Source of the DNA: Wenzhouxiangellaceae bacterium
Lineage (GTDB): Bacteria > Pseudomonadota > Gammaproteobacteria > Xanthomonadales > Wenzhouxiangellaceae
Direction: 5' to 3'
NCBI GenBank assembly: GCA_032251475.1
Contig: JAVVDX010000001.1
Location: 665 to 64,664, forward strand
Length of the DNA: 64,000 nucleotides
Shown here: positions 18,413 to 61,927 of the stretch, in pieces
Layout of the letters: each line of letters begins with the position of its first letter
How positions within the stretch are numbered: the first letter of the stretch is position 1
The notes under the pieces: model-generated
Told to the model about the DNA's origin: nothing
Database searches by the model: none
Seen by the model: only the letters and a program-made list of their open reading frames with translations
Translations under genes and position numbers: made by a program

Positions 18413-18715
18413 ATGAACAAGCAAAACGCGGTCGTTGAATTCAGCATCACACCAGTTGGCGCCGGAGGCCATATCAGCCAGGCCGTTGCCCGCTGCACGC
18501 AGATCGTGCGCGAATCCGGTTTGGAAAACGAACTGCATGCGATGGGCACCATCCTCGAAGGCGACCTCGACGACTGCCTGTGCGTGATTCACGAGTGCAT
18601 CGGCGCCGTCCTCGAACAGGCGCCCCGGGCGAGCACTTCGGTCCGGATCGATTGCGGGGAGGGCCGCTCCGGCATTGCGGGCCGGGTCCGGTCGGTGGAG
18701 GAAAAGCTCCCCTGA
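18413..18715 (+). CDS. MTH1187/YkoF-like thiamine-binding family protein
   Basis: EFSITPVG..ISQAVA, SGL..ELHAMGTILEG, RVRSVEEKL. Confidence 0.85.
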   Translation: MNKQNAVVEFSITPVGAGGHISQAVARCTQIVRESGLENELHAMGTILEGDLDDCLCVIHECIGAVLEQAPRASTSVRIDCGEGRSGIAGRVRSVEEKLP

Positions 18716-18897
18716 GCCCACCTAATTCATCGCCGTGCCGTAGCGAGGGGCCGACAGGTCCCGTGGCCAAGGCGTTTCGTGACCAAGCGCACCGGAAGCG
18801 TACTCCCCGGTACGGTGAGGACGCGCGACCGAGCGAAACGCCCTGGACGCGGGGCCTGGTGGCTCCGCAGTAGACAGGGTGGTGAATGAGATGGGCT
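18715..18897 (+). mobile_element. 183-bp rod-like hairpin MITE-like element, copy 1 (diverged terminal repeats)
   Basis: Core nearly identical to 27545-27727; TGA on both sides of the 181-bp body. Confidence 0.8.
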
Positions 18898-18934
18898 GAG
18901 CCGAACCCGGCACGCCACGCATCCCTGACTCGGA

Positions 18935-21508
18935 TCAGGAAAACACCAGGGCTCCTTCCTTCGCGTCGATCGTGACCGTGTCGCCGGGCCGGTAGTCGCC
19001 GGCGAGGATCTTGTGCGCCAGCGGGTTCTCCAACCGGTGCTGGATCGCGCGCTTCAGGGGCCGCGCGCCGTAGACCGGGTCGAAGCCGGCCTCGCCCAGC
19101 AGGTCCAGCGCCGCGTCGGTAATCGCAAAGCCGATGTCGCGCTCGGCCAGGCGGTCCTCCAGATAACGGATCTGGATGCCGGCGATGGCGCGAATCTGCG
19201 CCTGATCCAGCGGATGGAAGACGACGATTTCGTCGACCCGGTTGACGAACTCGGGACGGAAGTGCTGGCCGACGATCTCCATGACCGCCGACTTCATCGC
19301 CTCGTATTCCTCGCCGGCCATGCGCTGGATCCGGTCGGAGCCGAGATTCGACGTCATCACGACCACGGTATTGCGGAAGTCGACGGTCCGGCCGTGGCCG
19401 TCGGTCAGGCGGCCGTCGTCGAGCACCTGCAGCAGGATGTTGAACACGTCGGGGTGCGCCTTCTCGACCTCGTCGAGCAGGATCACGGAGTACGGACGGC
19501 GGCGCACGGTCTCGGTCAGATAGCCGCCCTCCTCGTAGCCGACATAGCCCGGCGGCGCCCCGATCAGGCGCGCCACGGCGTGCTTTTCCATGAACTCGGA
19601 CATGTCGATCCGGACCATGGCGTCGTCGGTGTCGAACAGGAAGGCGGCCAGCGCCTTGCACAGCTCGGTCTTGCCGACGCCGGTGGGCCCAAGGAACAAA
19701 AACGAGCCGTTGGGCCGGTTCGGGTCGGCGAGCCCGGCGCGCGAGCGCCGGATCGCGTCGGCGACGGCGCTGACCGCCTCGTCCTGGCCGACGACGCGTT
19801 CGTGCAGCGCCGATTCCATCCGCAGCAGCTTGTCCTTCTCGCCCTCGAGCATCTTGCTGACCGGGATTCCGGTCCAGCGGCTGACGACCTCGGCGATCTC
19901 TTCCTCGGTGACCTTGTTGCGCAGCAGCCGGAAGTGCTTCGTCGTGTCGTCCGACTCGACCTGTTCGAGCTGCTGCTCGAGTTCCGGGATCCGGCCGTGC
20001 TGCAGCTCGGCCATGCGCGACCAGTCCTGCGCGCGGCGGGCGTTGTCGAGTTCGGCGCGCGCGCGTTCGAGCTCTTCCTTGATGTGCATGGCACCCTGCA
20101 CCGACGATTTCTCGGCCTTCCAGATCTCTTCCATGTCCGAGTACTCGCGCTCGGCCTCGGCGATCTGTTCCTCGAGGTCGGCCAGGCGCTTCTTCGATGC
20201 CTCGTCGGTTTCGGACTTCAGCGCCTCGCGCTCGATCCGGAGCTGGATCAGCCGCCGCTCGATACGGTCCATGGCCTCGGGCTTGGAGTCGATCTCCATG
20301 CGAATGCGGCTGGCGGCCTCGTCCATCAGGTCGATGGCCTTGTCGGGAAGCTGGCGGTCGGTGATGTAGCGGTGCGACAGCGTCGCCGCGGCGACCAGCG
20401 CCGGGTCGGTGATGTCGACGCCGTGGTGCACTTCGTAGCGCTCCTGAAGGCCTCTGAGTATGGCGATCGTGTCCTCCACCGACGGTTCGTCGATCAGCAC
20501 CTTCTGGAAACGGCGCTCGAGCGCGGCGTCCTTTTCGATGTGCTCGCGATATTCGTCCAGCGTCGTCGCGCCGATGCAGTGCAGTTCGCCGCGGGCCAGC
20601 GCCGGCTTGAGCATGTTACCGGCGTCCATCGCGCCCTCGGCCTTGCCGGCGCCGGCCATGGTGTGGATCTCGTCGATGAACAGGATGACCCGGCCTTCCT
20701 GCTTCTTCAGATCGTTGAGCACGGCCTTGAGCCGCTCCTCGAACTCGCCGCGGAACTTCGCACCGGCGATCAGCGCACCCAGATCCAGCATCAGCACGCG
20801 CCTGTCGCGCAGTCCATCGGGCACCTCGCCGTTGACGATCCGCTGCGCCAGGCCTTCGACGATCGCGGTCTTGCCCACGCCCGGCTCGCCGATCAGCACC
20901 GGATTGTTCTTGGTCCGGCGCTGAAGCACCTGGATCGCTCGGCGGATTTCCTCGTCGCGGCCGATCACCGGATCCAGCCGCGACTGCTCGGCCTTCTCGG
21001 TCAGGTCGATGGTGTACTTGTCGAGCGCCTCGCGGGTGTCCTCGGCGTTCGGATCCTGGACCTTCTCGCCGCCGCGGATGTTCTCGATGGCCTGTTCCAG
21101 GCCGTCCCGGGTCACGCCAGCCCGGTGCAGGATTTCGGCGAGCGCGACCTTCGCCTCGAGCGCGGCCAGTACAAACAGTTCGGAGGCGACGTAGGCGTCG
21201 CCGCGCTTCTGCGCAATCTTGTCGGTGACGTTCAGCACCCGGCCGAGATCGTTGGACAGGTTGATCTGGCCGGCCTCGCCGCCCGAGACCCGGGGCATGC
21301 CGTCAAGCTTTTCACCGAGCTGCGAGCGCAGCGCGGCGACCTGCGCGCCGGCCTTGGTCAGCAGCCCGCGCATGCCCCCGCCTTCCTGGTCCAGCAGCGC
21401 AACCATCACGTGCTCGGGCTCGAGCATCGCATGGTCCATGCCCAGCGCAAGGCTCTGAGCCTCGTTCAGCGCCTGCTGGAAACGCGCGGTGAGTTTGTCC
21501 ATTCGCAT
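18935..21508 (-). CDS. clpB: ATP-dependent chaperone ClpB
   Basis: Two AAA+ modules ([16 protein letters not shown]), coiled-coil M domain, 857 aa. Confidence 0.97.
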
Positions 21509-21549
21509 CGCCGGCTCCCGAGTACCCGAAGATTGAAGTTATCCACAGG

Positions 21550-21575
21550 GTGGGGCCGTATCTCAATGGAATCAA
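21550..21575 (-). promoter_or_regulatory. putative sigma-32 heat-shock promoter of clpB
   Basis: TTGATT-N14-CCCCAC compared with consensus TTGAAA-N13/14-CCCCAT. Confidence 0.55.
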
Positions 21576-21586
21576 CCGGCCGCGGG

Positions 21587-60976: not shown

Positions 60977-60989
60977 TAATTCATTGATA
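60977..60989 (-). promoter_or_regulatory. IHF-consensus site in an AT-rich divergent promoter region
   Basis: TATCAA-TGAA-TTA matches WATCAA-N4-TTR. Confidence 0.4.
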
Positions 60990-61262
60990 TATAATTATTT
61001 TATCGGGACGACGCGGATACGGCCCACGGCGCCGGGCGCCACTGCGACAATCCGGCGCAATCCGAGCCGCGCGGCAGGCGAAGCGGCGATGATAAGGCGA
61101 GGCCACGGTCGGATCTACCTGGTGGATCGAGGGCACGGGCGGCGGGTTCATCACCGGCAATCATTCGCCTCTGCAGTGAATGCGCCGTGAAGCCGCCTCT
61201 CCCGGTCGCCCTTCCCCGCTTGCGCAGGGTATCCTTCCCCCAAGCCCCGAAGGAGACCCGCC

Positions 61263-61703
61263 ATGCGTTACCTGCACACGATGCTGCGCGTCACCGATCT
61301 CGACCGCGCGCTTGATTTCTTCCGCGACAAGCTCGGTCTGGTCGAAGTCCAGCGCAAGGAATCGGAGAAAGGCCGCTTTACGCTGGTGTTCCTCGCCGCG
61401 CCGAAGGACATCGAGCGCGCGAAGTCCGAGAAATCACCGCTGGTCGAACTGACCTGGAACTGGGACCCGGAAGAACTGACCGGGGGCCGCAGCTTCGGCC
61501 ACCTCGCCTACCGCGTCGACGACATCTACGAGACCTGCCAGCGTCTGATGGACGCCGGCGTTACCATCAACCGCCCGCCCCGCGATGGCCACATGGCCTT
61601 CGTCCGATCGCCCGACGGCCATTCGATCGAACTGCTGCAGGAAGGCGAACACCTCGCACCGCGCGAGCCGTGGGCGTCGATGGAAAACACCGGCACCTGG
61701 TAG
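61263..61703 (+). CDS. gloA: lactoylglutathione lyase (glyoxalase I)
   Basis: YLHTMLRV, ELTWNW, FGHLAY, SPDGHSIEL. Confidence 0.9.
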   Translation: MRYLHTMLRVTDLDRALDFFRDKLGLVEVQRKESEKGRFTLVFLAAPKDIERAKSEKSPLVELTWNWDPEELTGGRSFGHLAYRVDDIYETCQRLMDAGVTINRPPRDGHMAFVRSPDGHSIELLQEGEHLAPREPWASMENTGTW

Positions 61704-61715
61704 AAGCGACCGCCG

Positions 61716-61747
61716 CCATCCTGTCCTTCCCCCGCAGCGGGGGAAGG
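61716..61747 (-). repeat. REP-like palindrome, same family as 15782-15816
   Basis: CCATCCTGT-CCTTCCCCCGC-A-GCGGGGGAAGG. Confidence 0.75.
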
Positions 61748-61783
61748 AGCCCGAGCCAGGCTGGTGTGCTCGATGGATCCCGG

Positions 61784-61927
61784 CAAAAGCTCTGAAAAAC
61801 GTAGCGAGCGGGTGGCTGACGGCGGTCGCCGGAGCACAGGAACCGGAATATATATGCCAATACATGAGGATTCCGAGCACCGCCGGACGCCGTCAGGCGC
61901 ACGCGCAGTAGTTTTTCAGAGCTTTTG
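61784..61927 (+). mobile_element. 144-bp rod-like hairpin element with perfect 17-bp terminal inverted repeats, structurally related to the 183-bp family
   Basis: CAAAAGCTCTGAAAAAC ... GTTTTTCAGAGCTTTTG; internal GTAGCGA/GCAGTA and CCGGA/GAGGA loops; abuts the prpD stop. Confidence 0.8.

Follow-up and report, generated by a model that had tools for sequence, protein, structure and literature searches.

Rod-shaped MITEs with exchangeable ends and a conserved core that is probably selected as a strand-specific fold

In a 64,000-nucleotide stretch of DNA from a Wenzhouxiangellaceae bacterium (contig JAVVDX010000001.1, here C1; the whole stretch is called the window) four intergenic elements, e1 to e4, each fold into one long rod, and they raise the question whether these repeats are passive transposable elements of the miniature inverted-repeat type (MITEs) or whether their folded interior is itself preserved by selection. 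The window is part of a 2.82-Mb draft genome (G000) with 67% G+C, which comprises 156 contigs and is 85% complete. The elements are mobile, duplicate a TNA triplet at their target site, carry modular ends, belong to two homologous families of wide distribution and possess covarying stems and a strand-specific fold. We consider it probable, though by no means settled, that they represent a modular MITE superfamily in which exchangeable IS5-type ends are set on a conserved rod core that is selected as a strand-specific single-stranded fold. A textbook MITE has conserved ends and a free interior, whereas here the reverse is found, and the structured core persists with interchangeable ends in dozens of genera of Proteobacteria, most of them gamma- or betaproteobacterial, and single matches occur beyond these. 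Elements of this kind are known; the core is unusually constrained and, apart from the Rfam family sX9, largely uncatalogued. The initial annotation, which was made from the sequence of the window alone, had proposed an undescribed, strand-specific structure that is not expected of a passive MITE. Its conserved loops, swapped ends and strand-specific constraint stood up to the analysis, while the contrast with a MITE and the full novelty did not.

All four hairpins of the initial annotation were found in the places it had given; the locations of its element bounds were right, except that the outermost bases of e1 and e3 are part of a 3-bp TNA duplication. Elements e1 to e3 represent a 183-nt family A and e4 a 144-nt family B, both being small (144–183 nt), non-coding and multi-copy, as is typical of a MITE. 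The two families were compared by means of a covariance model (R1), into which 94 B-type rods of many genera and zero A sequences entered. The features of the window are the following.

18716–18896, + strand: e1, family A copy (181-nt body), matched by R1 at 18718–18894 on the + strand with E 2e-6; flanked by TGA duplications at 18713–18715 and 18897–18899, the left TGA being the stop codon of the upstream gene.
27546–27726, + strand: e2, family A copy, matched by R1 at 27548–27724 on the + strand with E 1e-8; motifs CGTAGCGAG at 27569–27577, CCGGAG at 27622–27627, TGAGGA at 27646–27651 and GTAGTAG at 27697–27703; imperfect flanks (CCA/CCG), site between divergent genes.
41904–42084, − strand: e3, family A copy, matched by R1 at 41906–42082 on the − strand with E 4e-8; TCA duplication (element sense) at 42087–42085 and 41903–41901, corresponding to the TGA stop codon of a + strand gene.
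61784–61927, + strand: e4, family B copy, matched by R1 at 61779–61932 on the + strand with 151 bits; outer stem CAAAAGCTCTGAAAAAC / GTTTTTCAGAGCTTTTG; core at 61800–61911 with CGTAGCGAG at 61800–61808, GGAACCGGA at 61839–61847, ATGAGGATTCC at 61864–61874 and GCAGTAG at 61905–61911; without a clean duplication, site between convergent genes.
61793–61865, − strand: stretch of e4 resembling Rfam sX9 (RF02228), 30.9 bits, E 3e-4.

Both families have in common the motif CGTAGCGAG in the 5' arm, a tip in which CCGGAG and TGAGGA enclose a GYGTAC...GTACRK hairpin, and GCAGTAG in the 3' arm. The shared core, which extends over ~110 nt from CGTAGCGAG to GCAGTAG, forms a rod that is interrupted by three asymmetric internal loops, all conserved, and closed by an apical GYGTAC...GTACRY hairpin; an additional symmetric GACCGAG/GACCGAG loop is restricted to family A. 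Because R1, built without any A sequence, recovers e1 to e3 over their full length and in + orientation (E 2e-6 to 1e-8), families A and B are homologous as judged from sequence and modelled pairing. A search with profile hidden Markov models (HMMs) detected ~16 full and 12 partial copies of family A and ~8 full and 10 partial copies of family B in the draft genome. The non-overlapping HMM matches amounted to 31 for A and 19 for B, and since several of them lie at contig ends, the element evidently breaks draft assemblies. A mini open reading frame in the core of e4 (ATGAGG...CAGTAG, 15 codons) was considered as well and rejected; its frame is not kept across subfamilies.

The contrast with a MITE drawn by the initial annotation failed on several grounds, namely the terminal inverted repeats, the TNA duplication, the empty sites, the near-identical copies elsewhere and the IS5-like ends of family B. 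The terminal inverted repeat of family A comprises 21 bp (CCCGGATTATTCATGACCCGG), with the end sequence GCCCGGATTATTCATGACCCGG. Among 78 distinct family A insertions in relatives of the genome, 48 are flanked by identical 3-bp sequences, 46 of which are TNA triplets (TCA 16, TTA 14, TAA 12, TGA 4). In e1 and e3 it is the neighbouring gene's stop codon that has been duplicated. B-type copies of other genera likewise show TNA duplications. The site of e3 is empty in four genus-mates (G016, G020, G007 and G015), where the orthologous gene ends with ...CCCTGA and a short spacer of unrelated sequence comes next. Furthermore, four copies in the window's genome are identical over the whole element, and as they reside at different locations, each with its own TCA duplication, they indicate recent movement.

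A 3-bp TNA duplication is typical of subgroups of the IS5 family. In one genus-mate (G009) an insertion sequence (IS) of ~1.17 kb encodes an IS5-family transposase (NF033581 353 bits; DDE_Tnp_1 118 bits; DUF772), and its inverted repeat GGAAGCTCTGAATAAG resembles the B-type ends AAAAGCTCTGAAAAAC (of e4), GGAAGCTTCG and GGAAGCCTCGGAAA. The flanks of this IS are CTAG, not TNA. By its ends the IS may plausibly be related to the mobiliser. Terminal repeats that stand alone in the genome were examined as possible ends of a larger element; this was rejected, as they are deletion remnants.

Several copies show internal rearrangements. The stretches C6:104–240, C18:20923–20980 and C116:3576–3628 are internally deleted derivatives; the one on C6 has lost the apical module exactly between two GCGACCGAGCG direct repeats, while in the others only the two terminal repeats are left, joined head to head. 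B-type rods also occur in head-to-tail tandem arrays of 3–6 units with a period of 120–180 nt, sometimes beside an A copy; examples are G000 C83:7929–8221 (next to C83:8725–8903), L030, L032, L024 and G004:C1:2181901–2182932. In two further B copies (C49:778–922 and C54:6008–6152) CTCGCTACG, exactly complementary to the 5' loop, stands in place of the 3' loop GCAGTAG; this looks like a template-switch 'correction' of the palindrome.

Folding by minimum free energy (MFE) agrees with one long rod for each of the four elements. With RNA parameters the values for the + and − strand were −107.6 and −91.5 kcal/mol for e1, −132.9 and −105.7 for e2, −120.9 and −90.5 for e3 and −71.4 and −72.6 for e4, and the z-scores against shuffled sequences ranged from −8.3 to −13.6 for e2 and e4. 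The observation of the initial annotation that the stems differ and nevertheless stay paired was borne out by pairing and covariation in the 94 B-type rods, in which 91% of the pair cells hold standard pairs compared to 69% with shuffled partners. The covariation score of 0.543 was not reached in any of 500 shuffles (0.167 for shuffled partners) and dropped to 0.05–0.10 when the partners were slid by 1–3 columns; 36 of the 43 pairs exhibit double-sided changes, and the inner stems covary like the outer ones. The internal loops, likewise claimed to be conserved, have column identities of 0.85–0.92 versus 0.50–0.58 for the stems, loop 1 being partly enforced by the filter, which retained 72 of 112 pattern matches with GCGAG and GCAGTA (at most 1 mismatch each). 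The motifs GGAGCGCA and GAGCACCGC, which were not forced by the search pattern, reach 0.88–0.92. As the initial annotation had seen, e4 has other ends and yet the same loops, and this proved to be general, with ends varying among lineages around a constant core. The CCGGA/GAGGA loop was also considered as a kink-turn; the lengths of its strands are off the consensus of that motif.

G·T mismatches had been described as concentrated on one strand, which was taken as a strand-specific constraint, and the counts as well as the strand stabilities sustain both statements. In family A 322 G·U cells face 93 A·C cells, and in the B-type set the numbers are 309 and 98, with G·U in excess of A·C at 25 columns and the reverse at 10. 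Under RNA parameters 101 of 102 A copies fold more stably as + strand (mean −123 versus −101 kcal/mol); among the B-type rods the + strand is more stable in 73, and the − strand in 19. DNA parameters give the same direction of the bias for A and B-type elements. Common variants of family A, present in at least 5 copies, produce G·U at ~31 pair columns and A·C at 5, whereas the counts for variants found in only 1–2 copies are 34 for A·C and 23 for G·U. This pattern suggests that fresh mutations are symmetric and that the variants which spread are those preserving the pairing of the + strand. Since the G·U excess is present in shared variants and not in private ones, selection would act on the lineages that multiply rather than on each resident copy.

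As determined by BLAST, 19 of 21 genus-mates contain family A, which is also present in one further genus of the family, and all 21 contain the B core (model positions 17–128); neither was detected in 16 genomes from other families of the order. In most B copies the core alone matches e4; the outer 16–17 bp are different in sequence and remain paired, loosely following the consensus GGAAAYC...GRTTTCC. Tandem arrays are present among these copies. The nearest B-type sequence is that of L062, another Wenzhouxiangellaceae genome. One genome per species was scanned for the apical module (GGAACCGGAR N12–20 ATGAGGATTCC), for which we estimate ~5 matches by chance. The scan gave at least 118 stretches, which belong to dozens of named genera, and most of these stretches are full rods with the same loop motifs, other stems and inverted repeats, and TNA flanks. 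Hosts among the matches listed include Xanthomonas, Rhodanobacteraceae, Lysobacterales, Wenzhouxiangella, Halomonas, Pseudomonas, Herbaspirillum, Pseudogulbenkiania, Formivibrio, Uliginosibacterium, Gallionella, Mycoavidus and Polaromonas, and single matches among them fall to Chlorobiales/Prosthecochloris, Candidatus Troglogloeales and Devosia. A homologous 137-nt rod of Aeromonas caviae was reached via a BLAST match; this was the sole match of e2 and e4 among plasmids and lies on a 4.9-Mb record that is filed as a plasmid and is probably a chromosome. A BLAST search of 5,426 E. coli genomes with e4 and the Aeromonas rod gave zero matches. Copy numbers can be high: one Xanthomonas phaseoli chromosome holds 27 matches (~25 separate copies) and one complete genome of a genus-mate 31 matches, tandem arrays among them.

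At gathering thresholds no Rfam family matched anywhere in the window. At relaxed thresholds sX9 was the only match besides chance miRNA-like ones, and it was located in e4, where it covers, on the minus strand, the rod's 5' half and the apical hairpin. The term 'undescribed' used in the initial annotation consequently has to be narrowed, because half of the B-type core corresponds to sX9; it holds for the remainder, which is uncatalogued. Twelve B copies of the genome scored 31–46 bits against sX9, whose gathering score is 44, and a single copy exceeded it (45.8), the other 11 of 12 remaining below; family A gave no sX9 match at relaxed thresholds. In Xanthomonas campestris pv. vesicatoria sX9 is seen as a 75-nt RNA on Northern blots, and it is described as a single 75-nt small RNA (sRNA) locus, not as half of a mobile, repeated palindrome found across genera (PMC3300014). 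Genomes of Xanthomonas, the host genus of sX9, carry full rods with TNA duplications, and sX9 aligns to the minus strand of the B-type rods' 5' half plus apical hairpin. In Xanthomonas phaseoli one such rod (L064:708–860) is located between divergent genes, its sX9-equivalent strand being directed towards the left gene and ending ~64 nt upstream of the start; sX9 may be a fragment from a 5' leader and not from a 3' untranslated region. Contigs from RNA libraries (one named Xanthomonas study and unlabelled runs) cover the element and other copies, although they carry no strand, no ends and no expression level, may include carried-over DNA and break inside the element because other copies share the sequence. 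A literature search with strings of the core sequence returned zero reports.

The position of the copies relative to genes is mixed. Of 65 wide-set loci with callable neighbours, 24 lie between convergent and 10 between divergent genes, while 14 are in tandem with the + strand in sense and 17 with the + strand in antisense; the copies of the window's genome are similarly distributed, and many copies directly adjoin stop codons. In the outer stem of the B-type rods the core has A to its 5' side and T to its 3' side (A-U versus U-A 77:4, 65:13 and 59:5). With these tracts and their preference for convergent gene pairs (24/65) the B-type rods look like bidirectional terminators. As family A is without A/T tracts, the conserved function of the core cannot lie in termination.

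Small mobile hairpins near gene ends have precedents. MITEs that act as transcribed hairpins, such as ERIC and Correia elements, are already known, and ERIC/IRU elements are ~127-bp imperfect palindromes with many intergenic copies near gene ends, a hairpin RNA and orientation-dependent effects on mRNA (PMC10969869). The elements described here share with ERIC/IRU of Enterobacteriaceae and Vibrionaceae (V_AS5, RF02818) the imperfect palindrome and the many intergenic copies at gene ends. An E. coli ERIC copy has a GCTTAC...GTAAGT hairpin enclosed by an apical GA/GA loop as well as a CGCAGCA motif, all at the same positions, whereas its ends, stems and most loop sequences are different. The V_AS5 model gave no match to e2 or e4 at E values up to 10, compared to 46 bits for the E. 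coli ERIC copy; conversely, R1 scored the ERIC copy with 21.4 bits, with filters off only; the strand corresponded, and the CGCAG and apical motifs came to lie opposite each other. A distant homology with ERIC is possible on this basis, yet weakly supported. Correia elements (NEMIS) of Neisseria are ~100–160-bp MITEs with long inverted repeats, which give co-transcribed, RNase-processed hairpins and provide sites for host factors (PMC10969869). By description they resemble our elements as small MITEs whose long inverted repeats fold into hairpins. Correia elements duplicate TA, are not known from outside Neisseria and show their conservation at the ends, not in a core common to several classes.

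REP sequences and REPINs are repeated intergenic hairpins with a conserved GTAG beside the stem, which are mobilised by RAYT (a Y1 HUH protein) and for which selection on a single-stranded fold has been proposed. The present elements are similar in being repeated intergenic hairpins with GTAG adjoining a stem; they differ in that the two arms carry GTAG on one and the same strand (not GTAG...CTAC) and in having a TNA duplication and true terminal inverted repeats. A RAYT/REPIN origin was rejected, since no Y1_Tnp gene was found in the window's genome or in G015 and none within 1.5 kb of any element; Y1 genes are present in genus-mates, none of them near the elements. The copies examined are dispersed, single and TNA-flanked beside ordinary gene ends, which is a misfit with the cassette arrays of integron attC sites, although no search aimed at an integrase or at R''/R' boxes was made.

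According to the mechanism which we propose, each element would consist of two parts, lineage-specific IS5-type terminal inverted repeats and the shared core. A DDE transposase supplied in trans would cut the element and paste it into a triplet of the form TNA, which would be duplicated and is very frequently a stop codon, and selection on the + strand fold would act mainly on the lineages that multiply. In a transcript the rod would serve as a harmless or useful hairpin at the gene end, for example in protection of the RNA 3' end or in processing; in subfamilies with A/T tracts it could additionally be a bidirectional terminator. The core is inferred, from the sequence comparisons, to owe its preservation to selection that acts on the + strand in its folded, single-stranded form. 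Concerning the place of action we lean slightly towards a fold that works in the transcript rather than as single-stranded DNA during mobilisation. If the RNA role is true, a very widespread gene-end module has been missed or mislabelled in annotation, as in the case of sX9 as a Xanthomonas-specific sRNA.

Several points count against this reading. Regarding mobility, the B copies of this genus are mostly without a clean duplication, the search for a transposase whose ends match family A found none, and the window's genome (an 85% complete draft) yielded no IS5-family, DDE_Tnp_1 or Y1 transposase. Most genus-mates, among them complete genomes that contain 16–31 matches, likewise gave no DUF772 or IS5_3 transposase, and a search of the genus for the IS5_3 type returned none. 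Regarding the fold, any transposon should show covariation in its outermost stem, since a single transposase has to accommodate both ends; the counted G·U and A·C cells are phylogenetically related, which overstates the p-values; and the absence of A·C at two consensus G·U pairs is not independent evidence of selection, since any single transition from G·U yields a Watson-Crick pair. Finally, the better-folding strand is not preferentially transcribed (14 tandem loci in sense, 17 in antisense). At abutted stop codons the mRNA carries the − strand more often (~26 versus 10), the duplications of family A concur (TCA and TTA 30, TGA and TAA 16), and sX9 is likewise the − strand. As the + strand is not favoured in transcripts, a simple role of its RNA in cis is weakened.

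In an alternative explanation the rod matters as single-stranded DNA in mobilisation, where the + hairpin would join the ends or recruit the transposase or a host factor, so that good folders transpose more. In its favour are the independence of the strand bias from the direction of transcription, its presence in propagated and not in private variants, the higher stability of the + strand under DNA parameters too and the retention of the core through swaps of the ends. IS5-family DDE transposases, however, are not known to make use of folded single strands. Also, no replichore pattern of orientation was seen in the Xanthomonas chromosome or in G004 (origins assumed, not mapped), unlike in IS200/IS605-type elements; Y1 (HUH) genes are absent from the window's genome and from the copy-rich G015, with none within 1.5 kb of an element, and a TNA duplication is not a HUH signature. 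We regard this explanation as rather improbable. A related and still more doubtful idea is that the core is a portable strand-specific module needed for the spread of the element, i.e. an RNA or single-stranded DNA cofactor that recruits the IS5-type transposase or a universal host factor. It would explain why the core is conserved across classes while the transposase-specific ends swap. Should the core indeed be needed for mobilisation, this would be an unrecognised requirement of IS5-type transposition and a new fold dependence of a DDE-type MITE.

Even less credit is due to the view that the core is a true structured sRNA gene of the sX9 type, which acts in trans and merely rides on transposon ends. 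The 75-nt sX9 RNA is stable on Northern blots (PMC3300014), its Rfam model matches B copies and the loop motifs are conserved across classes; but its strand is opposite to the better folder and comprises only half of the rod, a conserved promoter is not apparent and the ends where it would sit vary. The tens of copies per genome in either orientation to genes do not fit such a gene, nor does any Rfam family other than sX9 match. Least likely of all, and very improbable in our judgement, is a passive palindromic MITE whose pairing arises from template switching between the arms and whose shared core reflects recent horizontal spread. Such events do occur to judge from the two B copies on C49 and C54 with CTCGCTACG as the exact complement in the 3' loop, and the C6 copy deleted between its internal GCGACCGAGCG direct repeats points in the same direction. 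Yet template switching should erase asymmetric loops, and it is these that are better conserved than any other part in dozens of genera whose stems are only ~50% identical; for this reason a passive palindrome is unlikely to be the whole story. The excess of G·U over A·C is left unexplained by it as well.

A further small repeat was noticed within the elements. In several A copies a REP-like mini-hairpin of ~26 nt (GAGCCYGCCCCGGAC-NNN-GATCCGGGG) is inserted at CCAG^G in either arm; in G000 it is found at C5:53713–53738, C71:9556–9581, C140:1163–1188, C2:38686–38711 and ~13 more sites. None lies within the four elements of the window, and a diverged form is situated inside the B copy C2:71851–71944. 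Elsewhere the mini-hairpin occurs ~17 times, often in the fixed context TCGGGTTAGAGCCTGCCCCGGACTCGATCCGGGGCCGAAGGC, which suggests a third small repeat family nesting in A and B. Nesting is again encountered in B-type rods of Pseudogulbenkiania (L082, L086, L095, L113 and L120), which carry an extra hairpin of ~30 nt (…GCTGAGCCAATCGAAGATTGGCACGC…) right after TGAGGATTCC.

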